Of a DNA stretch of 64,000 nt, positions 5,311 through 23,017 are shown piece after piece. Each line of letters opens with the position of its first letter. Position 1 is the stretch's first letter. The stretch is from an uncultured Clostridia bacterium (lineage in GTDB: Bacteria > Bacillota > Clostridia > TANB77 > CAG-508). The translations under genes and the position numbers were made by a program. The notes below the pieces were generated by a model, which saw nothing but the letters and a program-made list of their open reading frames with translations, had not been told where the DNA came from and did not search any database. The stretch is taken from contig CAKPAI010000001.1 of the NCBI GenBank assembly GCA_934133005.1, forward strand, positions 298,769 to 362,768, in the 5' to 3' direction.

Positions 5311-6246
5311 TTATTTATTTCCAATATAATATTTAATCATTTCTGTGTATTGATCCTGCGCATTTAAACAAGTATCTATTAAATATCCTTTTTCTTTATT
5401 AGTTTGATATTGATTTAGTCCCCTATAATAAAATAGTTTTTCTTTATCTAAAATGATAAATGGTACAATATTATTTTTCAAACATTCTTTAAATGCAATT
5501 ATTCTACCAACTCTACCATTACCATCTTGAAATGGATGTATCTTTTCAAATTTTGCATGAAATTCTATTATTTCATTTATTGTAACTTGTTTCAAAGACT
5601 CATACCATTCTAACAATTTTTTCATATCTCTTTCAACATTTTTAGGATCTGTAGTTTTTAGTCCTCCTACTTCATTAGCTAATTTTTTATAATCTCCCAC
5701 TACAAACCAATCTTTTCTGCTATCTGATGTTCCCTCTTTTAATATTTTGTGAAATTCTTTTATCATCTTTTCAGTTAACTTTTTACTTGCTATATCTAAC
5801 ATATAATCAACTAATTTAAAATGATTAGCCGTTTCTAATACATCATCTAAATCTGTAATAGAATCTTTTTCTGCCAATAAAGTGTTAGTCTCATAAATAT
5901 ATCTAGTCTGATCTTCTGTGAGCTTACTTCCTTCAATATGATTTGTATTATATGCAAATGTAATTTGAGTATTATGATATAGATTTCCTTTTAATTTCAT
6001 ATTTTTTTGTTCTCTTAACACTTCTAAAATATTTATTTTAGATATATCAAAATCATCTTCTTTAATCAATTCATCAACAGAAATTTCAAATATTTCAGCT
6101 AACTTTTTTAATGATTCGATATTAGGTTCTAATGTTCCAGATTCATATTTAGAAACTGTAGCTGGTTTCACTCCTAATGATTCTGCAATTTCAACTTGCG
6201 TCATGTTTTTATTTTCTCTATATAATTTTATTTTTTCTCCTAACAT
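5311..6246 (-). CDS. HTH(XRE)-Fic family protein (Fic/Doc AMPylation-type fold, N-terminal helix-turn-helix)
   Basis: N-term MTQVEIAESLGVKPATVSKYESG (XRE HTH). C-terminal Fic motif IHPFQDGNGRVGR matching HPFx[DE]GNGR. Confidence 0.85.
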   Translation of the reverse strand: MLGEKIKLYRENKNMTQVEIAESLGVKPATVSKYESGTLEPNIESLKKLAEIFEISVDELIKEDDFDISKINILEVLREQKNMKLKGNLYHNTQITFAYNTNHIEGSKLTEDQTRYIYETNTLLAEKDSITDLDDVLETANHFKLVDYMLDIASKKLTEKMIKEFHKILKEGTSDSRKDWFVVGDYKKLANEVGGLKTTDPKNVERDMKKLLEWYESLKQVTINEIIEFHAKFEKIHPFQDGNGRVGRIIAFKECLKNNIVPFIILDKEKLFYYRGLNQYQTNKEKGYLIDTCLNAQDQYTEMIKYYIGNK

Positions 6247-6370: not shown

Positions 6371-7822
6371 TTAATAAAATAAATTTTCTTTCATTTCAAT
6401 AACCTTTTTATCTATTTCTGAAAAATCATATACAGATGCAAAAATTACTTGATATTCTTTAAAATCACGCTCTAATATCTTTATCATAGCAATAGAAGCA
6501 TTACTTGTTAATTCATTAGTTCGTGGTGAATCAATTATTATAGGTAAATTCAGTCCATATCTATTTTTAATTTCTAATAAATATGCAATCTTAAAAGAAA
6601 ATGACATATGTGTCAAAATTCTTCCTGTTTTGCCTTTTAATTTATTTGTTAATACAAATTTAGAACTATCGCCAATATACTCATCAAATTTTAATTCTTT
6701 GGCATATTTTTTTATAGTATTATAAATTGAATTCAAATACATGTTATTTTCTGATAATATATTATGCAATTCATTCATCAATTTTTGTTTTCTTCTTGTT
6801 AATTGCCCAATTATTTTATCCATTTGTTTTTCATTAATATTGACATCTTTTAGCATCTCATCAACTTCTTCAGCAACAGTTTTTACATTAAATAAAATAT
6901 TTCTATCATTTAGCTCATCTTCAATTTTATTTATTTCGTTTTTAATTTTACCTAAATTTATTTCTAATTCTTTTTTTCTTGTTTCATAGAAAATCTGATT
7001 TTCATTATAATTTAATATATTATCTTTAGCTAGTTTAACGGAATTATCATTAGAAATTTTTACATATATATCTAACTTTTCAAGGTAGTCAACTAATTTT
7101 TTATTATCTTTTAAAATGCCACTAACATCTTTAATATCATTTTTTATTTCAGCCTCTCTTATTTTAAGTAATTTTAATTGACTATATAACTCGTTATCAT
7201 CATTCTTGGTATATGATGTAACTTCTTCAATAATATTTTCACTTTTATATTCCGCAATACTTTTTAGTGATCTATATTTTCGTATTTCATCTTCTATCTT
7301 TTTTATTTCATTATTAATTGAAGAAACATCTTTATCGGATAATGCAGAAATAAAATCTTCTATATTAAATCTGTTTTTTCCTATAATTATTCCTCTATTT
7401 AGAAGAGTCCATCCTTTTTCTTGGTCAATATAAAAAATAGCTAATAAATTATTTAGAATCATAATTTCACTTATGTTAAAAATTTTAGAATGTAGCTCAT
7501 ATAATTGTTCAGGTACTATATAAGTTATTTTCTCATTTTTTTCATTCAAAATAACAATATCTCCTTTTCGTTCAAGTGAATATTGTTGTTCATTTTCTAT
7601 TATATCTATATGTATAAAAAAATCATCAAAAGTCTTTATTCCATCTGTTGCAGGTATGTTATATCCTAGTCCGAATAGTATTGCTCTTAGCAAAGTTGTT
7701 TTTCCTTTTGAATTTTCTTTACTATAAATCAAATTAATCTTATCATCAAAAACAAACTCTCTATATTCATCTTTCCTTTGAATAATAACTTTTCTAATTT
7801 TCATATTTGTTAGCCCTTTCAA
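6371..7822 (-). CDS. lmuB: SMC/ABC-like coiled-coil ATPase; candidate Lamassu LmuB (DUF3732-like)
   Basis: Walker A SKGKTTLLRAILFGLG near N-terminus. ~300 aa of K/E/I/N-rich coiled-coil. C-terminal signature-like KGKTGRILTHMS and Walker B LPIIIDSP. Probable true ATG start at ~7804 (MKIRKV...), 5 nt after upstream stop. Confidence 0.5.
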   Translation of the reverse strand: MKGLTNMKIRKVIIQRKDEYREFVFDDKINLIYSKENSKGKTTLLRAILFGLGYNIPATDGIKTFDDFFIHIDIIENEQQYSLERKGDIVILNEKNEKITYIVPEQLYELHSKIFNISEIMILNNLLAIFYIDQEKGWTLLNRGIIIGKNRFNIEDFISALSDKDVSSINNEIKKIEDEIRKYRSLKSIAEYKSENIIEEVTSYTKNDDNELYSQLKLLKIREAEIKNDIKDVSGILKDNKKLVDYLEKLDIYVKISNDNSVKLAKDNILNYNENQIFYETRKKELEINLGKIKNEINKIEDELNDRNILFNVKTVAEEVDEMLKDVNINEKQMDKIIGQLTRRKQKLMNELHNILSENNMYLNSIYNTIKKYAKELKFDEYIGDSSKFVLTNKLKGKTGRILTHMSFSFKIAYLLEIKNRYGLNLPIIIDSPRTNELTSNASIAMIKILERDFKEYQVIFASVYDFSEIDKKVIEMKENLFY

Positions 7823-8819
7823 ACATTTGCATTATATTTCCTTTTCTTATGAATATTTTTTTTGCAATAATTTTTGAGCAAGCTTTCTCTATAGTTTCCA
7901 TATTGCTATCTTTATTATTTTTAAAAACTATATCGTATATTTCGTTTTCATATTTAATAACAAACTGATTGCTTCTTATTTCTTTATCTTCGATTTTAGC
8001 TTTCATTATTAAATTGCTAATCTTATTATATACATCAAAGTCAGCTTCTTTATAGTTTATTATCCTATCATACGTATCTAATGCTTCAAAAAAAGTTTCT
8101 TCTTCAATTTCCATACTTTCGTCAAACTTTATTGAGTTTCCATCGCCTAATTTTAAGATTAAAAGTCTCCACAAAACATCTTCCTTTTTAAATTTTAATT
8201 TCATATTATTTTGAGTTGCATTATGTAGTGCTTCTGACTCTAACATTTGTAGGAATCTATTTTTATATGGTAGTAAATCCGAACTGATAAAAGTTAAAAA
8301 GTCTTCAATTTTGGCAATTATATATTTCTGTTTTGTTTCTTTATCTTCACCAAAAAAAGGGACTTTAGCAATTATTAATTTATCCCTATTTATGTTCTTT
8401 TGTAATTGATTAAGTTGAATATCAATTTTTTCTTTTGAAGCTAAAGATAATTCATTATATTTGAAAAATGATACTAATTCAAATTCATTTGTTCCAGAGT
8501 TTAATGGGTTCGGTTCTAAATTACTTATATATATTAGGCTTTCTGAATCATTATCATTAACATCTGATAATGATTCCAAAGCCTTTCTTAATTTTGTTGA
8601 ATATGAACTCGTATCACCATCATTAATATTTTGTTTTGATTTTGCTTGTGCATAAATTTTTTTACTATTATTTAATGAAATTTCAATATCTTCCTTTTCT
8701 CCTTCTATCTTCATTTCTTTAAATTTTCCAAAATATTTTATCATTAAATATATAGCTATATTAATTTGAAATTGCCATCCAAAAGCACTTGCACTTGCAT
8801 TTCTATTTATAGCTTTCAT
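7794..8819 (-). CDS. lmuA: PD-(D/E)xK-type nuclease-like protein; candidate Lamassu LmuA (DUF4297/Cap4-nuclease-like N-terminus)
   Basis: N-terminal ASAFGWQFQINIAIYLMIKYF followed by IEGEKEDIEISLNN...YAQAKS, a G-aromatic-x-aromatic-Q then E-x-E-D then Q-x-K pattern. Directly upstream of and operonic with the SMC-like ATPase. Confidence 0.45.
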   Translation of the reverse strand: MKAINRNASASAFGWQFQINIAIYLMIKYFGKFKEMKIEGEKEDIEISLNNSKKIYAQAKSKQNINDGDTSSYSTKLRKALESLSDVNDNDSESLIYISNLEPNPLNSGTNEFELVSFFKYNELSLASKEKIDIQLNQLQKNINRDKLIIAKVPFFGEDKETKQKYIIAKIEDFLTFISSDLLPYKNRFLQMLESEALHNATQNNMKLKFKKEDVLWRLLILKLGDGNSIKFDESMEIEEETFFEALDTYDRIINYKEADFDVYNKISNLIMKAKIEDKEIRSNQFVIKYENEIYDIVFKNNKDSNMETIEKACSKIIAKKIFIRKGNIMQMFERANKYEN

Positions 8820-8904: not shown

Positions 8905-9924
8905 TTATTCTTCCACTTCAATTACAGGTATAAATAATTTCTTTAATTTTATGGTATCTTTAAATTTCTCTGACATATCATCATAGTATTTTAAAATTAA
9001 ATCTACTAATTCACTTCCATTAATAGATTTTATTATTGGATGCTTTTCTAAATATATTTTAGCATTTTTTGCATAATCTGATAAAGTTACAAATAAACCA
9101 TAATCTCCTTCGTCCATAGTTCCTTTTAATGATTGTACTGTAGATTCTGTGATATTTCCATCTTGGCTTTTTACTTGTACAATAATTCTTGGTGGCAATT
9201 CATCTTTATATGCAATAATGTCTTTTCCATTATCTCCTCCGTGAGGACTAATTTTTGTTCTATATCCCATTGCATTTAATAAATCTGCGACAACATCCTC
9301 CAATTCATATCCTTTAAAATTTTTATTTAACTCTTTTAATACATAATCTTTGGTACTTTCTAATATAGTCTCTGAAGTCGCAAATACATTATCGTCATTT
9401 TCTTGATTATTTTTTACCTTCTTTCCATTGTGAAGAGCATTTATAAATTCATCTGCATAATGCCTTACTTGAAAAAATGATAAAAATGATCCTATTTCAT
9501 ATAATGCACCTTGCGAAAATTCTTCTCTTGGTAATTTTTTTAACCATTTTACTTTTCTCTTTTGATTATATTCTGTTTCTCTACTATCAAAGAAATATTC
9601 CCCTTCAATTTGTCCAATATTAATCATTCTATTAAATTTTGTTGGATATATCACATAATCTCCTATTTTAGCTTCATTAACAAATCTAAATAGTTGTCCT
9701 GCAGAACCTGCTATAGATTGTTTAGATTTGTTTGGATAAACTTTATCATAGGCCTTATAATAAGATTCTCTATCTGTATCTATTGTGGATAAATCTCCCA
9801 TTTCATGCCAACCTATAGCTATGACTTCATCTTGTAATAATAAATTTTCATTATTCGTATTATGAATTCCCCAAACTATTATTTCCTCACTCATTATTTT
9901 TCCTTTTATGTTATATTTAATCAC
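8905..9924 (-). CDS. mrr: Type IV (modification-dependent) restriction endonuclease Mrr (Mrr_N winged-helix + Mrr_cat PD-(D/E)xK)
   Basis: Catalytic-domain motif ISPHGGDNGKDIIAYKDELPPRIIVQVKSQ, matching GxDxGxD ... VQxK of Mrr_cat. N-terminal ~110 aa resembles Mrr_N. Confidence 0.8.
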   Translation of the reverse strand: MIKYNIKGKIMSEEIIVWGIHNTNNENLLLQDEVIAIGWHEMGDLSTIDTDRESYYKAYDKVYPNKSKQSIAGSAGQLFRFVNEAKIGDYVIYPTKFNRMINIGQIEGEYFFDSRETEYNQKRKVKWLKKLPREEFSQGALYEIGSFLSFFQVRHYADEFINALHNGKKVKNNQENDDNVFATSETILESTKDYVLKELNKNFKGYELEDVVADLLNAMGYRTKISPHGGDNGKDIIAYKDELPPRIIVQVKSQDGNITESTVQSLKGTMDEGDYGLFVTLSDYAKNAKIYLEKHPIIKSINGSELVDLILKYYDDMSEKFKDTIKLKKLFIPVIEVEE

Positions 9925-10070
9925 TTAAATATGACATATTCTCCTTTTATTCTACTTTTTATATTATTTTAACCTATATTTCTTATTAATGTTTTATTAT
10001 ACTTGAAACTTCTTTGTATTTATACTTTAGCTTGCTCATTTTATATATTTGTTCAACTTAAATTTTTCTC

Positions 10071-13000
10071 CTATTTTATTCTAGAATCAATATATTTCCA
10101 TTCGTCATCTGTTATATTCCATTTTTCACAAAGATACTTATCTGTATAAATCCTATCGTACTTTCCTAAATCAGGTACAAAACAAAATTTATTTCTTAAT
10201 ACATCTTGTGAAACAACAGCTTGTAAAAGTAAAAATCTTATTGTTTTAGTAAATAAATATGATTTAAAATTTTTAACTTCTTCTTCTGTATCAAAAGCTC
10301 CTGCTACAATAAATGATTCTGTACAACATTCACCTGGTTTAGCAATATTCGTATTACCATCATAATAAAATCCAACTGGTTTAGTGAAATCTGTTTGTCC
10401 AGCAATTGGAGATCTAGGAACCAGTAATTTCCATTTATTTAATAATTTATTTTCATCATGTATATCTTTTAAATCGGCATATCTCTTTCCAATCTTTTGT
10501 ATAAACCAGCAAGGAACCCCTTTATCTTTAGGTTTATAATTCGTTGGTAGTCCAAAAGGTTTTTGTGGGGATACCACATTTTCTAGTGTTTTACCATTTT
10601 CTTGTACATTAAAGACTTTCCTAATAATTGGAATAGCTTGGTTAAATCTCACAAATGTATTAAATTCATTTAAATTTCTTGATGAAGAATATTTAACATT
10701 GTTTATAACATTAGTAACTTCACATTCTGTTTTATTATTTTTATCCCATAAGAAATAATTAACACCACCTGCAATATCAGCTGAATCAAAAACATCTCTA
10801 GTATTAGGATAATCAATAATTTTTGTTAAGCATGTATCATTTAGCATATCTTTTCTAAACTCATTCAATCCCATACCTCCAGAAAACCATCTCGATGGAG
10901 TAATCATGCTTATATATTTAGAATCTATTGATTTTGACATATTTATAAACAAATTATATATTGGTTTAGCCTGTGTACCATATCCACCAGTAATTTCTTG
11001 ATATGGAGGGTTTCCAACCACTGCATCGAATTTCATTTGCACTCCTTCCTTATTCCAACTATTAGCATTTAATACATAATTAGTAACTGCTGTTATATTT
11101 TCATCTAATTTAGTTGCAACATCTTCTATTAGTAAAGTATTTACATTATATTCTTTATAACCTGCTAATGTTCTTTTTACAATTTGCATTGCCATTTTAG
11201 TTTTACAAATTATAAAAATATTATTTTCTAATGTTTCTCTCCAAAAATCTTCATTTTTTTCTTCCGTGTAATCTTGCTTATTATAATTTAACAGTCTGTT
11301 CATGTATATACTATAAGAACAATACAAAGCATATAAACCTGTTTTTGAATTTATTTCTAATATTTTAACCTCATTATTCTCAAATAAATCCTTGGTAACA
11401 TTTCCTTGGTTTATAAATCTTGGTTCTTTATCTGGATAATTAAAATTATATCCTCCAATACAGTCTCCTAAATGCATATTTACTGTTTTCCAAGGTGTAA
11501 GTACAGTTTCTTTATCTGGATTTCTAAACATTGAGAATATTTCAGCTAGCTTTTGTATTCTTTCTTTTATAGGCAATGTGTCTGCATATAATGTTGAATT
11601 TCTAATTTGTCTTCCAGCTTCAATAAATATTTCATTATCATAATATTTAGAGAACTTTTTAAATACATCTTTTGTAACGCCATTAGGCATAAATTCATTC
11701 CATGATTTATCATCTACTAATTCAATAAAATTTTGGCTGTCAATATCTTTATTTATTTCAATATCTGCTCCATATATTAGTAATGGTATTCTTATTGATA
11801 TTCCTCTCAATATCGACATTGCTGTTGAAGCTTGTTTTTTCTTTTCTTTTTCTTCTTCAAGTAGTCTTTTTTCTTCTTCAGTTAGCTCTCTCTTAGGTTT
11901 CTTTTTGGCTTCTTCTAATTTCTCATATTCTTCATTATTAAATCCCTGATTGTTAATATCAATACTATCAATTCTTTTTGTTTGTTTACTAACTCCAACT
12001 ATTTTCTTTAAATCATCAAACTCTTTCAAATCTATTTCATCCATTTTTAGTAGATTATCATTATAAATATTTTTATCATCAAATCCATTGGTTACAACTC
12101 TTTGAGCTACTGCTTTTTTTAATTCTCTTAACATTTGAGTAACATCATATTTAATCATTTTAGAACCATCAATTCCAATAATTGGGCAAAAATTTAGAAA
12201 ATGGCTCATAATTTCTTGTGATTGAACTGAACCTGGTCTTACTGATAATTGACCTGCCTGTGCGGCCATTTTTAATGTTCTATCTGGAGCAAAATCAAAC
12301 ACATAACATTTCTCTTTAACTTTGCCTCCAATTTTAGCTGGTGTTTGAACTCTAAATATTGTTTGTAAATAACTAGAAGCCGATGTGGAATATGAGCCAG
12401 AAAGCATGAAAACAGCTGTCCATTCTGGTACACTAACTCCTGTAGTTAATCTTCCACATGAAATTGTAATAGTATTAGTTTCTTCTGGCTTATCTGTTAT
12501 TGCTGTTCTTACCTTCTTTAGAGCTTCTTCATATTTTTCTTCTTCATCACCATTTCCTGCTACATTAACAATCTGAAACATTCCAGATCCAAATACTTCA
12601 TGTTCTTTTAATAATTTACTTAAAGCTTTAGCCTCTTTAACTCCTGGTACCATCCATAATGAATGCCTAAAATATTCAATATACTCTTTAGTTGAATATG
12701 GATAATTAGAATTCTCGTCCTGCTTAGACAATAAATTTAAAAACCTATTTATATCATCTTTATGTACAAAATCTCCTTTTTCATATCCTTTTGGAATAGG
12801 TTTTCGATCAATCTCTAATTCTCCTGTCCAAGTTCTAAAAAATTCTCTAAAGTTAAATGCATTATCCGATACATCCACATATCTAGGCATCAATTTATCT
12901 AAATAATATGTATAAATATTAAGTTGTGGCAAATCGCTATACGGATTAGAATCTCCAAAATGTTCTATATCTGCATCCCATTCTAATTTAGCTGATTGTT

Positions 13001-14012
13001 CCATAATGTAATCCCATGTATAAATTTCATCTTCTTTAAAATCACTTAGTAAATTAAATGGTGTTCCAGATAACATCAATACTTTAGTTTTATAATCATC
13101 ATGTATCTTTACGACACCATCGATTGTCTTTTCTCCTAAACTTGTTCTTGTTCCTTCATGTGCCTCATCAATTACAACTAAGTCCCAGTTATTATTGAAA
13201 ATTAGTTCATCTTTATCAAAATTACCACCTACTTCTGATGATCCTCTTAAATCTTGAATAGAAGCAAAATATACAAATGGTTTATCGCTATCAATTAAAC
13301 TTTCTATATTTTCTCCAAAAGTTTTAGAACCATATTTATAATCACTATCTTTTGAAAATATTTTATTAAAGTCTTCAAACCATCCATTATTTACGACTGG
13401 TCTATGCGTAATTATTATTGTTTTTTTATACTTCTGCCTTCTTACTATTTCTAATGCAGTTAATGTTTTACCAAAACGCATTTTAGCATTCCAAAGCATA
13501 ATATCACTTTTTTTAAAATTTTCAATCGTTTTCTTTATTGCTTCTTCCTGTTCAGGTCTAAATACAATTGGATCCCTATCATAAGAGATCTCTTTTGCAG
13601 TTAACGCTTGTCTATTGTCTTTAACAGCCTTAATAGCTTGCTTAGCAGTTTCCAAATCCACAACAAACCATTCGTTTTGTTTATTCTCTGTATCAAAATA
13701 ATATCTTTCTAATCCGGACCTTAATAAAACATTATGAACTTTTGTATCTTTAAATGAATTACCGTTATTGTCAACTGCTAATTCTGTATATAATAATTCA
13801 TATTTTATACCAGCTGTTGATGTATAACTATTAATCCTATTTTTAGCGGCCTCATTTAATTCTTCAGAATTTGGTTGCAATTCTAACAAAGATTTATTTG
13901 TATGAACTGTAGCCTCTCCTATTTTCAATTTTCCACTATGAAATTCATCATTAATTCTAAAAATATAAATCAACTTATAGCTAAATGTCGACGTAAATTT
14001 ATTTGTTTCCAT
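10071..14012 (-). CDS. 1313-aa three-domain fusion: T5orf172/GIY-YIG-like N-terminal domain + SF2 (ResIII/DEAD-like) helicase + gamma-class N6-adenine DNA methyltransferase; Type ISP/IIG-like single-polypeptide RM candidate
   Basis: N-term YKLIYIFRINDEFHSGKLKIGEAT...NEWFVV (GIY..KIG.T..EWF pattern). Helicase motif I MRFGKTLTALE, II LVVIDEAHEG, III VLMLSGTPFN, VI QTIFRVQTP. MTase motif X TVLTPWKTVNM, motif I ILEINSKTGLYALY, motif IV AVVGNPPYQE. ~300 aa follow NPPY and could be the TRD. Confidence 0.7.
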   Translation of the reverse strand: METNKFTSTFSYKLIYIFRINDEFHSGKLKIGEATVHTNKSLLELQPNSEELNEAAKNRINSYTSTAGIKYELLYTELAVDNNGNSFKDTKVHNVLLRSGLERYYFDTENKQNEWFVVDLETAKQAIKAVKDNRQALTAKEISYDRDPIVFRPEQEEAIKKTIENFKKSDIMLWNAKMRFGKTLTALEIVRRQKYKKTIIITHRPVVNNGWFEDFNKIFSKDSDYKYGSKTFGENIESLIDSDKPFVYFASIQDLRGSSEVGGNFDKDELIFNNNWDLVVIDEAHEGTRTSLGEKTIDGVVKIHDDYKTKVLMLSGTPFNLLSDFKEDEIYTWDYIMEQSAKLEWDADIEHFGDSNPYSDLPQLNIYTYYLDKLMPRYVDVSDNAFNFREFFRTWTGELEIDRKPIPKGYEKGDFVHKDDINRFLNLLSKQDENSNYPYSTKEYIEYFRHSLWMVPGVKEAKALSKLLKEHEVFGSGMFQIVNVAGNGDEEEKYEEALKKVRTAITDKPEETNTITISCGRLTTGVSVPEWTAVFMLSGSYSTSASSYLQTIFRVQTPAKIGGKVKEKCYVFDFAPDRTLKMAAQAGQLSVRPGSVQSQEIMSHFLNFCPIIGIDGSKMIKYDVTQMLRELKKAVAQRVVTNGFDDKNIYNDNLLKMDEIDLKEFDDLKKIVGVSKQTKRIDSIDINNQGFNNEEYEKLEEAKKKPKRELTEEEKRLLEEEKEKKKQASTAMSILRGISIRIPLLIYGADIEINKDIDSQNFIELVDDKSWNEFMPNGVTKDVFKKFSKYYDNEIFIEAGRQIRNSTLYADTLPIKERIQKLAEIFSMFRNPDKETVLTPWKTVNMHLGDCIGGYNFNYPDKEPRFINQGNVTKDLFENNEVKILEINSKTGLYALYCSYSIYMNRLLNYNKQDYTEEKNEDFWRETLENNIFIICKTKMAMQIVKRTLAGYKEYNVNTLLIEDVATKLDENITAVTNYVLNANSWNKEGVQMKFDAVVGNPPYQEITGGYGTQAKPIYNLFINMSKSIDSKYISMITPSRWFSGGMGLNEFRKDMLNDTCLTKIIDYPNTRDVFDSADIAGGVNYFLWDKNNKTECEVTNVINNVKYSSSRNLNEFNTFVRFNQAIPIIRKVFNVQENGKTLENVVSPQKPFGLPTNYKPKDKGVPCWFIQKIGKRYADLKDIHDENKLLNKWKLLVPRSPIAGQTDFTKPVGFYYDGNTNIAKPGECCTESFIVAGAFDTEEEVKNFKSYLFTKTIRFLLLQAVVSQDVLRNKFCFVPDLGKYDRIYTDKYLCEKWNITDDEWKYIDSRIK

Positions 14013-14991
14013 TTTTTCTACTCCTATTTAATAATGTAGTATATTTTATTGGTCTATTAGTTTCCCAATTCATTATTTTACAATAAATTCCATTATGTTT
14101 TTTATAATTATTTTTTTCACAGCCTATACAACTTATTTTTTGTGGCACATCTCCAAATAATGACATATTAATTACTTCATCTGTTTTGCAACTATATGGA
14201 ACTACAAATTTTGTGCCGTCCATTTGCCACACATTCCAAGAAATAATTTTCGCAATCTCTATAATATCTTCAATAAGTGGTTTTTCTTTAAATTTGTATA
14301 AATAATTATCTATAAATGTATACAACAAATTTTCTCTTGCAATCAACAAATTATCTCCTTGAAATTCAAAACCATAAGTATTTTTATATGCTTTCTGTAC
14401 CCAATCCATCCATTCTAACTTATCATTTACATTTTCATTTATAACTCTTAATTTTCTATCTAATAATCCTATCCTATTATTTACTTCTATAATATCACCT
14501 GAAACATTATCATATCTACTTACCAAATATGGTGCTTCTCCACAGGATACTTCCAATCTAGTATTGTAAACATAATCTTGCCATGTTTTATTCGTTTTAG
14601 TTGGAAAATTTATTTTTTCCTTATTTGAAATCCAACTTTTATCACTCTCAATATTAAAAAAACTATCTTCCCCTGACCAAGCATTATCTATTAAATTATT
14701 TTGTGAATTACAAATCCAAGATGGAGTAAAAACTTCAGCCTTATCTCTTATTCTCTTTTCTTGTTCTTTTTTACTTTTCTTTACTCTAGGTTTAATTACA
14801 TTTCCATTATAGCCTGTAATATTTTCAATTTTTATATTATCTTTAACTCCAAATCCTATACCTTTATCTCTATAATTATCAGTAGCCCAAATAATATTGT
14901 TATTTGTCGTATGATCTTTAAGAAGGATATGTAATAATTCATAATTTGTTTTTAGCAATATATTTTCCTGTATATCTGCACTATTTTCCAT
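13999..14991 (-). CDS. Hypothetical 330-aa protein translationally coupled (start/stop overlap) to the helicase-MTase fusion; Cys-rich C-terminus
   Basis: Its stop overlaps the ATG of the downstream 1313-aa gene. Contains AEVFTPSWICN but no MTase motif I/IV. C-terminal CIGCEKNNYKKHNGIYCKIMNW cluster. Function unassigned. Confidence 0.5.
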   Translation of the reverse strand: MENSADIQENILLKTNYELLHILLKDHTTNNNIIWATDNYRDKGIGFGVKDNIKIENITGYNGNVIKPRVKKSKKEQEKRIRDKAEVFTPSWICNSQNNLIDNAWSGEDSFFNIESDKSWISNKEKINFPTKTNKTWQDYVYNTRLEVSCGEAPYLVSRYDNVSGDIIEVNNRIGLLDRKLRVINENVNDKLEWMDWVQKAYKNTYGFEFQGDNLLIARENLLYTFIDNYLYKFKEKPLIEDIIEIAKIISWNVWQMDGTKFVVPYSCKTDEVINMSLFGDVPQKISCIGCEKNNYKKHNGIYCKIMNWETNRPIKYTTLLNRSRKNGNK

Positions 14992-15094
14992 ATTTTCCTC
15001 CCTTCAAATCAGTATAAACATTCTATACTATTTTATATCACAAATTATTCTTTTTCTCAATATAATTCTTGATATTTCTCTCTATTATATATCT

Positions 15095-15718
15095 TTAATT
15101 TCTTCCAAAAAAATGATCATAAGGATAACTAGCTTTAATATATTTTTCAGTTAATTCCATCTTATACTTTTCTAACAATTCCAAATATTTTTGTTTAAAA
15201 ACATTTTTACAAATCCACTCAACACCTTTACTAGAAATAATAACCTTGCCATCAACTAAAAATTTATATTGCTCAAATCCATTATCACACATTTTTTTAA
15301 CTGCTTTTCTAACAGTAATATCTCTTCTATCAAAATACTCACATAGTTGTTTTATTTTCATATCTTCATTCCACCAATTTTTATTATGTTCTACTTTTAA
15401 TAATTCTTCATATTGTCTAATTCTATCTTCAAAAAAATCCACATCAGCATCTATTAAAGATTTTTCTTTTTGAAAATACACTTGAGTTAACCATACATAT
15501 CCTTCTGCTAAAATAAAATATTTCCTACTTTTTACTTTCTCACTCCTCCATCTGCAAGTTGGATGTTTTTTTAGCATAACTTCTATAGCTTTTCTTAAAT
15601 CTTTATGTGTTATTTCTTTTCCATATTTAGTAGTAACACCTAGTAATTGAAATCTCTTTAAGATTTTATTATATGATAAGAAAATACTATCTAAAACTTG
15701 CTCTGAATCCATTTTCAT
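15095..15718 (-). CDS. Phage-related regulatory/DNA-binding protein (possible antirepressor / KilA-C-like); low-confidence family call
   Basis: 207 aa, W/K-rich, sits immediately upstream of phage-type replication genes. No catalytic motifs. Call is by context and general resemblance only. Confidence 0.3.
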   Translation of the reverse strand: MKMDSEQVLDSIFLSYNKILKRFQLLGVTTKYGKEITHKDLRKAIEVMLKKHPTCRWRSEKVKSRKYFILAEGYVWLTQVYFQKEKSLIDADVDFFEDRIRQYEELLKVEHNKNWWNEDMKIKQLCEYFDRRDITVRKAVKKMCDNGFEQYKFLVDGKVIISSKGVEWICKNVFKQKYLELLEKYKMELTEKYIKASYPYDHFFGRN

Positions 15719-16032
15719 TTTTCATCACTCCTACTTTCTTAATTTTATTAATGCTAGTCTACGTAGCATTGATAGTTGGCAAAATTTATTTTGCTCCGAA
15801 TAATGAGGCATTTTTTAATGCCCAATATTCGCCAGCGTGGTGTTTTGACACCCTTTTTGCTGTTTAGGGCAACATGCCCTAATACCCTTTTGGGCTCTCC
15901 GAGGGATACTTTTGATATAAATTTTTTCAAAATATTTTCAAAAAAGTTCAAATTTCTAAAATAAAAACTTGAACTTTTTTGCTTTACTTTTGTTTAAAAA
16001 TATATTATAATATTTTTAGATTTTGGATTAAG

Positions 16033-16887
16033 TTAGCATTTAGTTTTATCGCTTTTGCTAGCTTTTTCTTTTTCATTTATATCATTTTTTATGAGTGAAA
16101 TTCCATAACACATTTTGTATAAAATTTGTATGAATTCTTCTGCTAATTTCCTATTTTCAATAGCAATTTTCTCCAACAATTCTTCTCTTGTATATCTAGT
16201 TGTAATTACTATTGGTAACTCGTTTTCATATCTATTGTTAATAATTCTATACAACTTTTCTAAAGCCCATTTAGTTATTGTTTCACTCCCAAAATCATCG
16301 ATAATTAACATATCAACATTAGAATAAAGTTCCATAATTTCTGACTCTGTCGTAACAGTTTTATTAAAAGATTCTTTTATTCTATCTGTTATAGATCTAG
16401 TCCTTTCCAATAATGCAATTTTTTTATTTCTAATAATCTCATTAGCAATACTTGCTGCTAAATGAGTGTTTTCATATCCTATACTTCCATATATAATAAT
16501 TCCATCTTTAACTTTATTTTCTATACATAAATGTGTATATTTCATTAATGTTGTTATTGTTTCTTGGTTATCTTTAAATCTATCAAAATTTAAAAAATTA
16601 CAATATTTTAATTTCTTTTTTATACAACCATCCTTATATATTTTATTTATAATTTCTCTATACTTTCTTTGTTTTTCTTTTTCATTTTGCTTTGAATCAT
16701 ATTGTTTCCAAAATGCAATTGCTTCACTACAATCACACCTTTCATATTCTACCATATCGTGATTAACATTTGCATAAAGATAACTTAATCCTAATGGCTT
16801 TAATTTTTTATTGCAAAATCCACATTTTGCACCTTCATTGGTGATAACTTTAAAATTCACATTTTCTAAATCCACTTCTATTCTCAT
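16033..16887 (-). CDS. DnaC/IstB-like AAA+ helicase loader with N-terminal Zn-finger (phage replication protein)
   Basis: Walker B-like MLIIDDFGSE. LPIVITTRYTREEL (DnaC box). N-terminal CGFCNKK...CDCSE cysteine pairs. Confidence 0.65.
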   Translation of the reverse strand: MRIEVDLENVNFKVITNEGAKCGFCNKKLKPLGLSYLYANVNHDMVEYERCDCSEAIAFWKQYDSKQNEKEKQRKYREIINKIYKDGCIKKKLKYCNFLNFDRFKDNQETITTLMKYTHLCIENKVKDGIIIYGSIGYENTHLAASIANEIIRNKKIALLERTRSITDRIKESFNKTVTTESEIMELYSNVDMLIIDDFGSETITKWALEKLYRIINNRYENELPIVITTRYTREELLEKIAIENRKLAEEFIQILYKMCYGISLIKNDINEKEKASKSDKTKC

Positions 16888-17359
16888 CTCCTTCTTTAGC
16901 TAATATATTTTTAATCTTATTTTCTTCTTGTGTGTTATCCAACGTTATTGTAACGTTACTTTCTTCTTTTTCACTTTTCAACTTTTCACGATATTTTTGT
17001 TGTCTAATTCTATTTTGTTCTTTATATTTTTCATATGGCTCAATGCTTTGATACTTGTCCCAATTTTTAATTTTATATGCTTCATCTTCTACAATTAGCA
17101 TATTTAATTCTAGAAATTTTTGAATAATTTTTTCGATTTTTTTCTTAGATTTTCCCATAATCTTTGAAAAATTTTCTATTGTCATTGGTTTATTATTGCC
17201 TATTACTAATTTTCCATTTCTATTGCATTCTACAGCAATAATTAATAATTGAATCCATACTCTAAAATATGTATCTCCATCTGGTTCTCTTAACAGTATT
17301 TGAATTTTCCTATTTGAAAATATTTTTAATTCTATTTTCAACCATTGTAAACTATACAT
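16850..17359 (-). CDS. Phage replisome organizer N-terminal domain protein (DnaD-like)
   Basis: MYSLQWLKIELKIFSNRKIQILLREPDGDTYFRVWIQLLIIAVECNRNGKLV matches the conserved WIKL..IF...KI..L...P.GD...WI.LL.A..N..G.L pattern of phage_rep_org_N. Confidence 0.7.
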   Translation of the reverse strand: MYSLQWLKIELKIFSNRKIQILLREPDGDTYFRVWIQLLIIAVECNRNGKLVIGNNKPMTIENFSKIMGKSKKKIEKIIQKFLELNMLIVEDEAYKIKNWDKYQSIEPYEKYKEQNRIRQQKYREKLKSEKEESNVTITLDNTQEENKIKNILAKEGDENRSGFRKCEF

Positions 17360-17733: not shown

Positions 17734-18783
17734 ATGAATAAAATAAAATATGATGAACCTATAAATATCTTTGTTTCAACAAATGAAGAATTTACCCATA
17801 AGGCATTTTTATGCGGAAAAACAAAATCATCAAAACCTAAGTATTATGATTTAAAAGATGGAGATACTGGCTATTTTACTATTGATACTATAACTAACAC
17901 ACAACCACTTTGTAGCGAACTCATCTCTTTCTTAAATTGTGATTTTGATAATATTGATGAATGTTTTATGTGGTTTACTAAGTTTTTCACTTCATACATA
18001 ATATATACTGGAGAAGAAGATATAAATAAGTTTGAAATTAATAAATTTTATTCTTTTAGTAAAGTAAAAAATTTATTTAAAAAATATTATGAAGAAATAA
18101 AAAAAGACTCAAAACATGGTCAAAAACTATTATCAAAATTTGTTGATTATATATTTAACCTTGATAACATTAAAGAAATAAATGACTTTAGTACAAAAAT
18201 AAGATTTTATATTTATTATAATTCTCATTTTAAGGAACTTGATAGATTTATAAATAATCATTTTTCTATGCCACAAGGCTTTTCTTTTAGAACTATTTCT
18301 GATATTAAAGGAAATACAGAAAAAGATTTAATAAAATTCTTTAAGTCTAAATCCTCTTATGAAATTGAACCAAATTATAGCACTAGTAACGAAAACATTT
18401 ATGAAATTTTATATGTTACATTGTTTCAATTCGTACTTAATAATAAATATCTTATCAAGAAATGTAAAAATTGTGGTAAATACTTTATAACAGATAATCC
18501 ACGTATTAATTACTGTAATAATTTATACAAAGAAAAACAAACTTGTAGAGATATCGGAAACCAAATTGCTCAAAGAGTTAAGCAAGAAAATGAGATTGTT
18601 TATGGTAAATATCGTAAGATTTATGCAAAAAAAGCAATGTTAGTAAAACGTAATCCTGATATAGAAGTTTATAAGATTGATTATGAAAATTGGAAAAAAG
18701 AAGCTAAAGAATTTATGGATGCCATTAGATCTGAGGAGAAAACTTATAAAGAATTTGATGAGTGGTTGGAAGAAAACAAATAA
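17734..18783 (+). CDS. Hypothetical protein with C-terminal CxNCxxYF...YCN...TC[RK]D[IV]G zinc-finger-like domain; paralog of 27455-28774
   Basis: C-terminal KKCKNCGKYFITDNPRINYCNN...KQTCRDIGNQ aligns with ECENCHQYFIPVNRKDEIYCNR...EKTCKDVGAM of the element-2 protein. Both are transcribed divergently from an excisionase-like HTH gene. Confidence 0.55.
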   Translation: MNKIKYDEPINIFVSTNEEFTHKAFLCGKTKSSKPKYYDLKDGDTGYFTIDTITNTQPLCSELISFLNCDFDNIDECFMWFTKFFTSYIIYTGEEDINKFEINKFYSFSKVKNLFKKYYEEIKKDSKHGQKLLSKFVDYIFNLDNIKEINDFSTKIRFYIYYNSHFKELDRFINNHFSMPQGFSFRTISDIKGNTEKDLIKFFKSKSSYEIEPNYSTSNENIYEILYVTLFQFVLNNKYLIKKCKNCGKYFITDNPRINYCNNLYKEKQTCRDIGNQIAQRVKQENEIVYGKYRKIYAKKAMLVKRNPDIEVYKIDYENWKKEAKEFMDAIRSEEKTYKEFDEWLEENK

Positions 18784-18809: not shown

Positions 18810-19712
18810 TTATATAATCATTTCATAATCTATAATATCTCTTACATAATTTTCAAGTAAATTGTCATCAGAAATATATTCGCCCCATTCACAATCACAT
18901 GATATTAATTGATGCCCACATATAGGACACATTTCCCAGTCACATCCATCTAGATGATTTTCTCCTTTTTTAGCTCCACAATCGCCACAGTACTTGCAAT
19001 CAATTGAATAATATGAATCATTCGTATTGAACTTATAATTATAAAATTTCTCTTCATCTCCATATTTTATTCTCTTATATGCATTATTATCTTTTGTAAG
19101 TATATACGAATAGTATTGATTTTCCTCAATATCCTCTTTAAACTGTTTTAATTGTTTTTTAGTAAACTCAATTCCTCTAAAAACCTCAAAATCCTTTGCA
19201 TTATTTAAAATATTCTCAATAACATATTTATATTCTTCATTTTGATATTTATGGTGAAAAATTCTATAGTGTAATTTTGTATAAAGCTCAAATAACTTAC
19301 AATATTTTCTTTTTATTTCAATCGAATTAGCATTTACTTTAAAATGAATAAAATTATTTCTTATATTACCACAAGTAATCAATAAATCAGTTTCATTTTG
19401 TGAAAACAATTTTGGCTTTAAATTTTGCAATCTTGCTATCGATTTCGAATATGTTATAGTTTTTGCTTTATCGCTAATTTTCTCATCAATATTTTCATAA
19501 ATCAAACTTTCGTTAATTCTAAACAGAGCTTCTTTTAATAGTAATTCAATTGCTTGAACTAATAATATAAATGTTGTTTTCCACTTTCTTTTTTCTTCTA
19601 TAGAATTTCTATCTTCATCATGGCTTTCATCATATCCTATCTTTTTATAATAGTATAATGTTTCTTTAATATAATCATATGAATTCTCTATTAAATTTAA
19701 TTCAAAATTCAT
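18810..19712 (-). CDS. HEPN-like (Rx4H) protein with Cys/His-rich C-terminal zinc-ribbon cluster; third gene of SLATT-SMODS operon
   Basis: Helical N-terminal region LLVQAIELLLKEALFRI ... ITCGNIRNNFIHF (R-N-x-F-x-H = HEPN Rx4-6H motif). C-terminal DCKYCGDCGAKKGENHLDGCDWEMCPICGHQLISCDCEWGE. Starts 21 nt after SMODS stop. Confidence 0.45.
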   Translation of the reverse strand: MNFELNLIENSYDYIKETLYYYKKIGYDESHDEDRNSIEEKRKWKTTFILLVQAIELLLKEALFRINESLIYENIDEKISDKAKTITYSKSIARLQNLKPKLFSQNETDLLITCGNIRNNFIHFKVNANSIEIKRKYCKLFELYTKLHYRIFHHKYQNEEYKYVIENILNNAKDFEVFRGIEFTKKQLKQFKEDIEENQYYSYILTKDNNAYKRIKYGDEEKFYNYKFNTNDSYYSIDCKYCGDCGAKKGENHLDGCDWEMCPICGHQLISCDCEWGEYISDDNLLENYVRDIIDYEMII

Positions 19713-19733
19713 CTTATATTTTCTCGCTTTCTT

Positions 19734-21032
19734 TTAAACCCTTATTGGAACATCAATTTTTCCTTTAGCTATACATACATTATTTTTTATTATATATGCT
19801 TCAACATAATGGTCACCATCAAATTTAGAATATTCAGTATGTGTATAACTATTTGTTTCTAAAATTTGTCCCCTAATATCGTTTTTTTGCTTAGCTAAAT
19901 CTCCTTCGTTTTTTACTTTCCAAAGAATTTTATCTATACCATAATTCATAATTTCTGCTTTATTTACTATGTAAAATTCTAATTTTTTATCCCTCTTTAG
20001 AAACACATGATTTGTTATCATATCCCTTAAACTAGCTGGGCGGAATCCATCTTGTGTTACTATACAATCCAATTTTAAATTTAATACTACATCAACAGGA
20101 TATTCATCTTCAATAAATTCTTCTGTATGATCATAAGTGTATTGTTCTTTTTCTTCTTCCTCATTTTGTGCTTTAGGAAATTCTTTTCCAAAAAGATTTC
20201 TTAATTCTTTATTTAAATTTTTAGAATCCTCATTTAAATCTTTAATTTTGTTATAAGCTTTTTTGGCTTTTTTTACGAATTTTCCTCCATCATCATTATA
20301 TATTTTTTGATTACTTCCTATTGCAAACCAATAACTCTGATCTTTATCTTCATTCTTTAAGAACTCAAAAATATCTTTAACTAGATTTAAATAATCTTCA
20401 TATCCACAATTTTGATATTCCTTCTTCTTTTCAGGGAAATTATTAGTTAAAGTATCAATTAATAAGCCTTTAAATTTAAAACCTTTTTTGTTTTTCCATG
20501 ATCTAAGCATATGACATATATTTGTAAAATTTCCATTTGTGTCATCATCTTTTTTCTTACATTCGTCTATTTCTGGAATTGGATTTGTAATCTTCCAGCT
20601 TCCTCCATCATTTGTATCTGGATATTTAAATGAATCATCATTTTGCTTAAATCCTGGAACTAATTCTACTGTGTATTTTGTAAAGTTTATTACTACAACT
20701 TGTCCATCACCTTTTAAGTCTGTATTAGGATATTTTTCTTTCAATACATTTTTTACTTCTTGTAATAATTGAGATTGTTTATTTCCATCATTATCATTTA
20801 TTCTATCATAAACACTCTTAGGTAGATTAAAAAGTATGTCCAAATCACTTGTATTTTTTATTGCTGTAGTTCTACCAACTGAACCTACAATATACATATT
20901 AGATTCGTCATCATCTATGTCATAATAATGTTTATTTAATTTTTTTGTAATGCCTTTTACTGTTGTTTGCATATCTTCAAAATTATCTAGTTTTATGTTG
21001 TTACAGAAATCACAAAAATCATCTTTAATCAT
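19734..21032 (-). CDS. Pol-beta-superfamily nucleotidyltransferase, SMODS/CD-NTase-like (432 aa)
   Basis: GSVGRTTAIKNTSDLDILF = GS-x11-DhDh nucleotidyltransferase active-site motif. ~230-aa C-terminal extension. ATG immediately abuts stop of upstream 2TM gene. Confidence 0.55.
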   Translation of the reverse strand: MIKDDFCDFCNNIKLDNFEDMQTTVKGITKKLNKHYYDIDDDESNMYIVGSVGRTTAIKNTSDLDILFNLPKSVYDRINDNDGNKQSQLLQEVKNVLKEKYPNTDLKGDGQVVVINFTKYTVELVPGFKQNDDSFKYPDTNDGGSWKITNPIPEIDECKKKDDDTNGNFTNICHMLRSWKNKKGFKFKGLLIDTLTNNFPEKKKEYQNCGYEDYLNLVKDIFEFLKNEDKDQSYWFAIGSNQKIYNDDGGKFVKKAKKAYNKIKDLNEDSKNLNKELRNLFGKEFPKAQNEEEEKEQYTYDHTEEFIEDEYPVDVVLNLKLDCIVTQDGFRPASLRDMITNHVFLKRDKKLEFYIVNKAEIMNYGIDKILWKVKNEGDLAKQKNDIRGQILETNSYTHTEYSKFDGDHYVEAYIIKNNVCIAKGKIDVPIRV

Positions 21033-21578
21033 TTATTTTCCCTTTCTAAGCTCTACAGGTAAATAGCTATCTATTTCTTCATCTGAAAATGTATTATCTT
21101 TTTGTATTTTTAAAGCTTTTGATGCTTTTTTTACAGCTCTATCACATGTAGATAAGCTTTTCTTGCATATATTATGATATTTTAATAATATCTCATCTCT
21201 CTTCTTAGTAGCTTCATCCAATTCTATCTTATTTAATTTTATATCTGATAATACACAAATGGTTTCATTTTTTAATTGTAAAAATTCTAATGCGCTTAAT
21301 TTATGACTATCTCTTGATTCTTTTAAATTATATGTTTTATAAAAAGTATTTATAAATAGACATATAGCTGAAAAAACAGTGGTAATTATCTTTAAAGCAA
21401 CTTCATCAATAAAAAAGCAAGTTAATAATCCTGATGTAGTAATTGCTGAAGATAATATCTTGCAAAATTCTAAAACATTAAACCAAAAAGAATTAATATC
21501 ACTATGTTTTTCATGAATTTTATGGTTCCATACTATTGATGCAAAAATTTGTCTTATCTCTGATTCTATTATATTCAT
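21033..21578 (-). CDS. Two-TM helix protein, SLATT-like candidate membrane effector (181 aa)
   Basis: Two adjacent hydrophobic helices (FNVLEFCKILSSAITTSGLLTCFFI ; ALKIITTVFSAICLFINTFY) followed by ~100-aa helical/coiled C-terminus. Directly upstream of the nucleotidyltransferase. Confidence 0.45.
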   Translation of the reverse strand: MNIIESEIRQIFASIVWNHKIHEKHSDINSFWFNVLEFCKILSSAITTSGLLTCFFIDEVALKIITTVFSAICLFINTFYKTYNLKESRDSHKLSALEFLQLKNETICVLSDIKLNKIELDEATKKRDEILLKYHNICKKSLSTCDRAVKKASKALKIQKDNTFSDEEIDSYLPVELRKGK

Positions 21579-21699
21579 ATAAATTCCTCCTATATATTTG
21601 TCGTATTATATCATATTTTCTGTAAATAATCCAGTATTTTCAAAGGATTTTAGCTTTCAAATTTTCGACATTTTTTTACATTTTATTACATTTACAAAT

Positions 21700-21823
21700 T
21701 TTTTAAGTTTATTTTTGAAATCTATTGCAATTTGTTAACTATTATTGTATAATATTTTTGTTAACATTTTAATTAAACACTCCTCCCACCCATAGGCATA
21801 CTTGAAAGGAGGTGAAATAAGTA
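21700..21823 (+). promoter_or_regulatory. Integrase promoter: TTGCAA -35 / TATAAT -10 (approx. 21726/21748) flanked by two TTGTTAAC repeats; GGAGGTG RBS
   Basis: tctattgcaatttgttaactattattgtataatatttttgttaacat, then gaaaggaggtgaaataagtaATG. Confidence 0.55.
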
Positions 21824-23017
21824 ATGGCTGGGAGTATAGAAAAAAGAGGAAAAAATAGTTACAGGCTAACAGTATCTGAAGGATTTGGCCTAAACGGAAG
21901 ACCTATGATACACAGAAAAACAGTCCACGGGACTAAAAAAGATGCAGAAGTTGAACTAGCAAAATTTGTTACTGAAGTACAAAATGGTTTAGTACTTGAT
22001 GGTAAATCTCTTAAATTTTCTGAATTTACAGAAATATGGAAAAGAGATTATGGTTCAAAAGAACTTGCTCCATCAACATATAAAAGATATTGTAGAATGT
22101 TAGAAACAAGACTTTTACCATACTTTGGACATTTTTATATTAACAAAATAAAACCAACTGACATTATGAAATTCTATGACTTACTTGAAAAGGATACTCA
22201 GTTAGTTAGGAAAAAAGGTAACAATGGTTCAAAAACAAAAAAGCCCTTATCTGGTAAAACAATTTTAGAGCATCACAGATTATTACGAGCAATGCTTCAT
22301 AAAGCAGTTTATTGGCAATTAATAGTGGCGAATCCTGCTGAACGTGTTCAACCACCTAAAGCTAGAAAACCAAAAAGAAGATCTTATGATGATGAGCAAA
22401 CTAAAATATTACTAGAAAATTTAGAACTATTATCTAGCGAAGATACTAAATACAAAGTTGCAATCATCCTTACAGTATTTACTGGTGTTCGTTTAGGCGA
22501 GTTAATGGGTCTAGAATGGCAAGATGTTGATTTTAAAAACGGAATTATCAGTATTAATCGTTCTAGTCAGTACCTAGCAGATATGGGAGTTTTCACAAAA
22601 GTTCCAAAAACAGAAAGTTCCATTAGAGAAATTGCAATACCTGAATTTATTATTTCTTTACTTGAGAAATATAAGTTATGGTATGAAGAACAAAAATCGA
22701 TTTACGGCGAATTATGGACGAATTCCGATAGGTTATTTGTACAAGCAGATGGCAAACCAATGCATCCTTCTACAATTAGCAAATGGTTTGTAAAATATGT
22801 TGGTCAAATAGGATTACCTGTAATTAATTTTCACGGATTAAGACATACAAATGCAAGTTTACTAGTTGCACAAAATATTGATATAGCAGTAATTTCTGCG
22901 AGACTAGGACATGCACAAATAAGTACTACACTTGATTTTTATGTGCATCCACTACTTTCTCACAATAGAAAAGCTGGATATGCACTAGAAAATTTGTTAT
23001 TACCAACAAGGTCTTAA
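21824..23017 (+). CDS. int: Tyrosine site-specific integrase (phage integrase family, AP2-like arm-binding N-terminal domain)
   Basis: N-term KRGKNSYRLTVSEGFGLNGRPMIHRKTVHGTKKDAEVEL (arm-binding domain). C-terminal HGLRHTNASLL...LGHAQISTTLDFYVH (R..HxxR..Y catalytic box region). Confidence 0.85.
   Translation: MAGSIEKRGKNSYRLTVSEGFGLNGRPMIHRKTVHGTKKDAEVELAKFVTEVQNGLVLDGKSLKFSEFTEIWKRDYGSKELAPSTYKRYCRMLETRLLPYFGHFYINKIKPTDIMKFYDLLEKDTQLVRKKGNNGSKTKKPLSGKTILEHHRLLRAMLHKAVYWQLIVANPAERVQPPKARKPKRRSYDDEQTKILLENLELLSSEDTKYKVAIILTVFTGVRLGELMGLEWQDVDFKNGIISINRSSQYLADMGVFTKVPKTESSIREIAIPEFIISLLEKYKLWYEEQKSIYGELWTNSDRLFVQADGKPMHPSTISKWFVKYVGQIGLPVINFHGLRHTNASLLVAQNIDIAVISARLGHAQISTTLDFYVHPLLSHNRKAGYALENLLLPTRS

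Follow-up and report, generated by a model that had tools for sequence, protein, structure and literature searches.

A T5orf172-helicase-methylase protein and its constant partner, a predicted S-adenosylmethionine-binding methylase half, in an uncultured Clostridia bacterium

Restriction-modification enzymes of Type ISP (LlaGI, LlaBIII) contain a nuclease, a superfamily 2 (SF2) motor, a helical linker, a gamma-class N6-adenine methylase and a recognition domain in one chain, in that order. The Type III enzymes (Mod + Res, e.g. EcoP15I) are encoded by two genes, one for a methylase/recognition subunit and the other for a ResIII-type helicase-nuclease subunit. The DnmA(YeeA)-YeeB-YeeC set of Bacillus subtilis, with homologues in Vibrio crassostreae, combines an MmeI-like methylase, a helicase and a T5orf172/GIY-YIG protein, all encoded by a single conserved operon that lies on acquired DNA (PMC2731913, PMC9973331), and was proposed in 2009 as a helicase/GIY-YIG restriction system (PMC2731913). 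In our study, a gene pair was examined in a stretch of 64,000 nucleotides (the window; positions 298,769 to 362,768 of contig CAKPAI010000001.1) from an uncultured Clostridia bacterium. The pair encodes a large T5orf172-helicase-methylase protein and a small partner, which is predicted to be the S-adenosylmethionine (AdoMet)-binding half of a methylase. The partner half is called N, the catalytic half C, and the AdoMet-binding half within the large protein N'.

The domain order of the large protein was that of the Type ISP enzymes, and both are found on plasmids and mobile elements. The gamma-class N6-adenine methylase and the recognition domain resembled those of LlaBIII in structure; no sequence-level match was found between the large protein and the LlaBIII chain. 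The nuclease-type domain was T5orf172/GIY-YIG, whereas Type ISP enzymes contain an Mrr domain of the PD-(D/E)XK kind. The methylase was built from exchangeable halves and a second gene accompanied the large one in every testable locus, whereas Type ISP enzymes are single polypeptides; the window enzyme is probably not a single-polypeptide system. The DnmA-YeeB-YeeC set, which was compared by domain content only, shares with the pair a gamma-class N6-adenine methylase, an SF2 helicase and a T5orf172/GIY-YIG domain. It consists of three separate proteins with an MmeI-family methylase, and no free N-half partner has been described for it, whereas in the window an Eco57I-family methylase is fused to the nuclease-type domain and the helicase. 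Like the Type III enzymes, the pair has two genes, and one arrangement found among its relatives (fused N-C, then T5orf172-helicase-N') looks like Mod followed by Res, in gene logic only. The Res nuclease is a C-terminal PD-(D/E)XK domain and Mod is a beta-class methylase, whereas here the GIY-YIG-type domain is N-terminal, the methylase is gamma-class and the helicase protein itself carries a methylase N-half.

Three PADLOC models (PDLC03390, PDLC03375 and PDLC03626) covered parts of the pair; all are catalogue models from predicted genes, without described biochemistry. REase_MTase_IIG PDLC03626, a Type IIG model of 1359 positions, matched the large protein in three stretches (E = 3.9e-40), and the helicase proteins of relatives matched its positions 333-643; it is a sister model that contains a helicase segment and the same C-half. 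In the literature searched, no characterised member was found that would place the pair in a well-described REBASE family. No published description of a nuclease-helicase-methylase protein with an additional N-half was found in the literature searched, which fell short of most subscription-journal papers. As far as these searches show, the architecture has been catalogued in REBASE-derived models but not described or characterised.

Layout, occurrence and domains of the gene pair

The features of the pair were as follows.

13999..14991, minus strand: partner gene (N), 330 amino acids; predicted free-standing AdoMet-binding half of a gamma-class N6-adenine methyltransferase, without motif IV
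10071..14012, minus strand: large gene, 1313 amino acids; T5orf172, SF2 helicase, helical linker, N' half, catalytic half and recognition domain
13999..14012, minus strand: overlap of the partner stop and the large-gene start, 14 nt, with AGGAG upstream
13623..13973, minus strand: T5orf172 (GIY-YIG superfamily) domain, residues 14-130, from Pfam and conserved residues
12063..13571, minus strand: SF2 helicase/translocase core, residues ~148-650, from ResIII and invariant motifs
11508..12062, minus strand: helical K/E-rich linker from helicase to methylase, residues ~651-835; helices in the AlphaFold2 (AF2) model of residues 730-1313
11043..11507, minus strand: N' half, the in-cis AdoMet-binding half, residues 836-990; strands b1-b3 of the AF2 model and start of the Eco57I profile
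10761..11042, minus strand: catalytic half (C), residues 991-1084, beginning MKFDAVVGNPPYQ; Pfam Eco57I
11001-11012, minus strand: NPPY (motif IV) of the catalytic half
10074..10760, minus strand: target-recognition domain, residues 1085-1313, replaced by unrelated versions in otherwise similar homologues

The AGGAG sequence was located ~8 nt 5' of the ATG of the large gene, and this spacing together with the overlap fits translational coupling of the two genes. The G+C content of the window DNA was ~26%, at which the chance occurrence of a 3.9-kb open reading frame (ORF) is excluded; thousands of full-length homologues of the large protein were found. In the scan of positions 9800-15900 promoters scored no better than in shuffled sequence, and no terminator was found between the partner and the large gene. 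The locus gave no match in plasmid and phage collections when these were searched by megablast. The NCBI product names were 'Eco57I restriction-modification methylase domain-containing protein' for the large protein and 'restriction endonuclease subunit M' for the partner, and NCBIfam assigned no family to either.

The large gene was found in at least 564 species genomes, one genome per species being scanned. Linkage and flanking ORFs were analysed in the best 80 loci, which came from about ten phyla and included members of Bacillota, Bacteroidota, Verrucomicrobiota, Actinomycetota, Spirochaetota, Planctomycetota, Pseudomonadota, Ignavibacteria, Lentisphaeria, Gastranaerophilales and Anaeroplasmataceae. 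The partner was present directly upstream in 78 of the 80, and the remaining two had less than 300 nt of upstream sequence, so that the pairing held in 78 of 78 testable loci. No conserved third gene was found, as no clustered flanking ORF occurred in more than 5 of the 80 loci. In Intestinibacter and Pedobacter the pair stood alone between unrelated housekeeping genes; the large protein of Pedobacter is WP_039454376.1. Because the pairing was constant and no third gene was conserved, the module is a self-contained, horizontally mobile two-gene unit from which the partner is never lost.

The T5orf172 family falls within the GIY-YIG superfamily. PF10544 (T5orf172) matched residues 14-130 with a sub-threshold 17.2 bits in the Pfam scan of the full-length protein, and with 22.9 bits (cut-off 20; E = 1.2e-4) when residues 1-145 were scanned alone. 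It was also matched by 22 of 23 homologous N-termini (best E = 8e-9). The Y16, K30-I-G32, R59 and H93 residues were invariant in 36 homologues and E114 was conserved in at least 90% of them; the GIY-YIG core set, namely the Tyr of 'GIY', the K/Y-I-G element, Arg, His/Tyr and Glu, was completely present. A profile search of solved-structure sequences with this domain found nothing. Another T5orf172 protein, Gp88 of phage ICP1, has been described as an origin-directed nuclease (PMC8263062).

The helicase core contained a Pfam ResIII match at residues 150-319 (E = 2.9e-16). The motifs GKT (181-183), DEAH (282-285), SGTP (315-318), TTG (523-525) and QxxxR, within QTIFRVQ (550-556), were invariant in the 36 homologues. 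The linker that follows would, by analogy, take the position of the 'coupler' of Type ISP enzymes.

Residues 836-1313 contained the gamma-class motif order from X to VIII followed by the recognition domain, with strands b1-b7 of a seven-strand Rossmann-like fold in the AF2 model. The N' half contained VLTPW as motif X and LEINSKTGLY as motif I, and the TP, LEINSKTGLY and GNPPYQ motifs were invariant in the 36 homologues. Pfam Eco57I matched residues 930-1075 (E = 7.6e-31), its positions 1-76 aligning to residues 930-996 (N'), and PADLOC MTase_II PDLC03375 matched residues 993-1282 (E = 7.7e-42). The motif II site of N' was ICKT, without an acidic residue (C936 and K937 conserved in at least 90% of sequences, T938 invariant); the relatives contained GFAPS or GLAPT, likewise without one. 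The methylase of the large protein thus lacked the acidic residue of motif II, which in this class binds the AdoMet ribose where strand b2 ends.

Most of what the initial annotation had read from this locus was borne out: the overlapping ORFs of 1313 and 330 amino acids on the minus strand, their tight coupling (by the 14-nt overlap and the constant upstream partner), and the order T5orf172/GIY-YIG-like domain, SF2 helicase and gamma-class N6-adenine methylase, on Pfam matches and invariant motifs. The T5orf172-like N-terminus passed the curated Pfam cut-off in residues 1-145, the helicase motif set was complete, and the methylase contained the expected VLTPW, LEINSKTGLY and GNPPYQ beside its Eco57I match. 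The suggested resemblance to Type ISP enzymes, with a GIY-YIG-type domain in place of Mrr, also agreed with the domain order and the N-terminus found here. The description of the fusion as 'unusual' was overstated, since the gene occurs in hundreds of species genomes and REBASE-derived PADLOC models and NCBI names for it already exist.

The partner protein and the modularity of the methylase halves

The REBASE-derived PADLOC model MTase_II PDLC03390 covered the partner from end to end (E = 5e-129), and a Pfam scan of the partner gave no match. Motif conservation was read from an alignment of 38 homologues, and the following features were found.

14722..14736, minus strand: motif X, EVFTP, residues 86-90; invariant in 38 sequences
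14527..14544, minus strand: motif I-like loop, CGEAPY, residues 150-155; invariant, after a predicted beta strand (145-148)
14353..14373, minus strand: putative motif II-like segment, GFEFQGD, residues 207-213; assigned by analogy with the HsdM/Eco57I consensus
14215..14229, minus strand: putative motif III-like segment, WQMDG, residues 255-259; Q256, M257, D258 and G259 invariant
14095..14190, minus strand: Cys3-His cluster, C268, C288, C291 and H299; invariant in alignment A1

The motif II region followed the pattern YGF[ED].QGD...ARENL, with E or D at position 209 and invariant Q211, G and D213. The Cys3-His cluster, probably a zinc ribbon that has been inserted behind motif III, is lacking in some subfamilies; the partners of Pediococcus and of locus L157 were without it. 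No NPPY-like motif IV was found in the partner, which contained the X/I/II/III half only. The modelled AdoMet-binding subdomain of the partner was structurally similar to solved methylases. Searches of solved-structure sequences with both proteins, by phmmer and by profile, gave nothing useful.

A profile search of 1.84 billion representatives gave 2381 clusters of the partner family. Within the top 150 representatives of the 50% clusters, 31 proteins were 590-720 amino acids long. Six of these longer proteins were examined by Pfam, PADLOC or direct reading, and all six contained the partner domain followed, within ~10 residues, by ..MKFDFVIGNPPYQ.. or by an Eco57I-type C-half. Because natural fusions run the partner domain straight into a catalytic half, the partner is predicted, also from its modelled fold, to be the AdoMet-binding half (motifs X, I, II and III) of a gamma-class methylase whose C-half is encoded elsewhere. 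The partner had previously been left unassigned, as a protein with EVFTP but no methyltransferase motifs. The EVFTP motif is indeed present and motif IV is absent, but equivalents of X, I, II and III are invariant, and the fold and the gene fusions now give the protein a place. The two 'MTase_II' models, PDLC03390 and PDLC03375, would in fact represent the two halves of one methylase.

The T5orf172 domain and the helicase (together R) always ended in their own N-half, N', and every helicase-containing version possessed two N-halves (N and N') and one C-half. Four arrangements of these parts were found. In arrangement 1, N was followed by R-N'-C, as in the window and in the Pediococcus plasmid pSS1302. 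In arrangement 2, N and C were fused and R-N' was separate, the helicase protein ending exactly where MKFD..NPPY would start. In arrangement 3, N, C and R-N' were three genes (L157), and the C gene began MKFDYAIGNPPYN. Arrangement 4 contained the methylase only: Tenacibaculum phage PTm1 carried C (344 amino acids, beginning MKFDIIVGNPPYQ; PDLC03375, E = 3.5e-114), a helix-turn-helix (HTH) gene and N (PDLC03390, E = 6e-113), and helicase-free N-C fusions were present in L149 and L168. Neither a helicase nor N' was found within 6 kb of the N and C genes of PTm1, so that N must complete C in that phage. To judge from their genes, these relatives show that N and C suffice for the role of the methylase and can act as separate chains. 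The window partner was 51% identical to the N protein of PTm1, and the window C-half was similar by eye to the C protein of PTm1 across the catalytic part; the N-C interface is therefore probably retained in the window pair.

The recognition domains were exchanged as well. Conservation was flat (0.5-0.87 per 30-residue block) in the 36 closest homologues, from which a fixed specificity, without a variable recognition domain, was first read; the unrelated C-termini found later overturned this. The proteins of L034/L070 and L046 matched the query only to about residue 1084 and continued into unrelated C-terminal domains, and at least three unrelated recognition domains were found on similar helicase backbones. 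Viral and proviral contigs contained at least four C-half types on similar R-N' backbones, and these types were also seen on the fused N-C proteins P0241, P0242 and P0254. Such exchange is the pattern that would be expected of restriction-modification enzymes.

Two rearranged loci were observed. In positions 6001-8769 of L096 (IMG/VR contig 3300029856_000001) the partner was followed by a gene in which the first ~67 T5orf172 residues were joined to N' and C, the helicase being gone; this deletion variant may have arisen by natural decay, with only the methylase parts retained. In positions 5938-12753 of L007 (Bifidobacterium longum plasmid p1) an IS256 transposase was present between the partner and an Eco57I C-half gene, followed by a helicase gene of 1113 amino acids; the IS256 element has probably inserted into an N-C fusion and so divided it.

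Proposed mechanism and alternative explanations

It is fairly probable that the pair forms a self-contained defence module, ATP-dependent and restriction-modification-like, in which the methylase is bipartite and the logic is related to that of the Type ISP and Type III enzymes. The C-terminal domains of the large protein would recognise a DNA sequence, and flip and methylate an adenine, and the SF2 motor would translocate on DNA. The N-terminal T5orf172 (GIY-YIG) domain would be the nuclease, where Type ISP enzymes have Mrr. The free N would pair with the catalytic/recognition half C to give a protective N6-methyladenine (m6A) activity, and N' would tie the same C-half to the motor and the nuclease. 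We infer nuclease activity, translocation, the use of the N-half by C in methylation and a defence phenotype from this architecture.

The division of labour between N and N' may be read in two competing ways. N may be the working AdoMet half for C, with N' mainly a tether to the motor. N keeps the acidic residue of motif II, where N' has ICKT, GFAPS or GLAPT; phages carry N and C without N', and arrangements 2 and 3 detach C from N'. More doubtfully, one C-half could alternate between mutually exclusive assemblies, with N for methylation and self-protection, and with N' (motor and GIY-YIG nuclease) for restriction. A shared C-half would explain why C occurs joined to N, joined to N' or on its own across the four arrangements, why the helicase-containing versions never lose N and N', and why phages keep only N and C.

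Several results weigh against a bipartite defence enzyme. The large protein contains a complete methylase fold (N' + C) in cis, so that completing the fold does not account for the requirement for N. No similarity was found by hhalign between the partner profile and the large-protein profile, and the partner profile had no sequence similarity to solved methylases; the assignment of the partner therefore rests on its predicted fold and on the fusions. The same comparison gave no support to the proposal that the partner arose by recent duplication of N'. No methylome, cleavage or phage-resistance data for any member were found in the literature searched, and with the DnmA-YeeB-YeeC set of B. subtilis, alike in domain content only, neither restriction nor defence against phages was seen under the conditions of that study (PMC9973331). 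The AF2 model of residues 730-1313 packed N' on C confidently, and in the Pediococcus relative the Pfam N6_Mtase profile covered N' and C and ran colinearly through both. These last two results also favour an explanation in which the large protein is self-sufficient, as in Type ISP enzymes, and N' with C does all of the methylation, the partner being a pseudo-methylase of no catalytic relevance that provides a scaffold, a dimerisation partner, a DNA clamp or a regulator. Analogies are the inactive METTL14 beside METTL3 and the second Mod in Type III enzymes. We consider a pseudo-methylase partner rather unlikely, since the partner equivalents of motifs X, I, II and III are invariant and include the acidic residue that N' lacks, since N is the sole N-half available to C in PTm1 and in the helicase-free N-C fusions, and since C is fully separated from N' in arrangements 2 and 3.

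An improbable explanation is that the pair is a non-restriction module, a methylase-helicase of mobile elements which protects or marks DNA (anti-restriction in transfer, or epigenetic control) and in which T5orf172 only binds DNA. It would suit the integrative element that carries the locus beside a phage-type replication module and an integrase, the methylase-only N + C versions of phages, the single type of recognition domain in most close homologues, and the behaviour of DnmA-YeeBC of B. subtilis as an orphan methylase (PMC9973331). However, the GIY-YIG-type core residues are invariant across about ten phyla, in Intestinibacter and Pedobacter the pair is a two-gene island by itself with housekeeping genes on both sides, the window pair is embedded among candidate defence genes, and the exchange of recognition domains is like that in restriction-modification enzymes under diversifying selection. 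It is very improbable that the 330-amino-acid partner is a restriction endonuclease subunit, although it is so annotated on lactic-acid-bacterial plasmids and the GenBank record of PTm1 names it 'type II restriction endonuclease'. The D161...D178-R-K180 spacing is superficially like PD-(D/E)XK, and the PTm1 partner lies after an HTH gene, a place in which R genes are often found relative to C proteins; but in the model D178-K180 is located where a helix starts, outside the beta strands, the relatives examined have the domain joined in frame straight to the NPPY strand, and the C-half alone would be without strands b1-b3 and hence needs an N-half. A PD-(D/E)XK nuclease was rejected on this fold and fusion evidence.

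If active, the bipartite module would extend the ATP-dependent restriction-modification enzymes by a large and phylogenetically broad class with a GIY-YIG-type nuclease. It would in addition represent a DNA methyltransferase that is naturally divided between motifs III and IV, with its halves shuffled among polypeptides, which bears on the balance of modification and restriction and on the engineering of methylases as split proteins. For annotation, two catalogue families of 'Type II methyltransferase' would each represent half an enzyme, and 'restriction endonuclease' and 'restriction endonuclease subunit M' are unreliable labels for the small protein. The pair is often carried by gut Clostridia and Bacteroidota, in which it is likely to hinder the transfer of DNA and to supply an m6A motif.

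Neighbouring genes in the window

The window is chromosomal, as it encodes LeuRS, AdhE and AddB. The pair was found in a defence-island context, because the following PADLOC candidate-defence genes run alongside it.

2486-5266, minus strand: PDC-S53 helicase, 926 amino acids, AAA_30/UvrD_C; PADLOC E = 0
5311-6246, minus strand: HTH-Fic protein, PDC-S04/SoFic-like, 311 amino acids; PADLOC E = 8e-108
6371-8819, minus strand: PDC-M46A/B pair, 341 amino acids (M46A, E = 4e-59) and 483 amino acids (M46B, E = 9e-135), with a 29-nt overlap
8905-9924, minus strand: Mrr_cat protein, PDC-S02, 339 amino acids, directly downstream of the large gene; Pfam E = 5e-24, PADLOC E = 5e-123

The two PDC-M46 ORFs look like an uncharacterised two-gene candidate defence system; neither had a Pfam match, and the 483-amino-acid M46B protein also resembled an LmuB-type ATPase. 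The Mrr_cat gene also adjoins the identical gene on contig L005 and was not conserved with the pair in other species. It was rejected as a third component, as no third gene was present in more than 5 of the 80 loci. A further ORF of 207 amino acids (15095-15718, minus strand), 103 nt upstream of the partner and on the same strand, gave no match in Pfam and PADLOC scans and was likewise not conserved with the pair.

An integrative island in the window comprised a phage-type replication module (16033-17359), a tyrosine integrase (21824-23017, plus strand), a nucleotide cyclase of the SMODS + AGS_C type (19734-21032) and a KAP NTPase. The cyclase gene had small ORFs on either side (21033-21578 and 18810-19712); SMODS + AGS_C cyclases are typical of the cyclic-oligonucleotide-based anti-phage signalling systems (CBASS). 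The cyclase/integrase stretch, 18810-23017, probably marks the end of the integrative element. A KAP-family P-loop NTPase of 1242 amino acids was present at 23580-27308 (minus strand). Two DUF6076 proteins, of 349 amino acids (17734-18783) and 439 amino acids (27455-28774), were encoded on opposite sides of the integrase.

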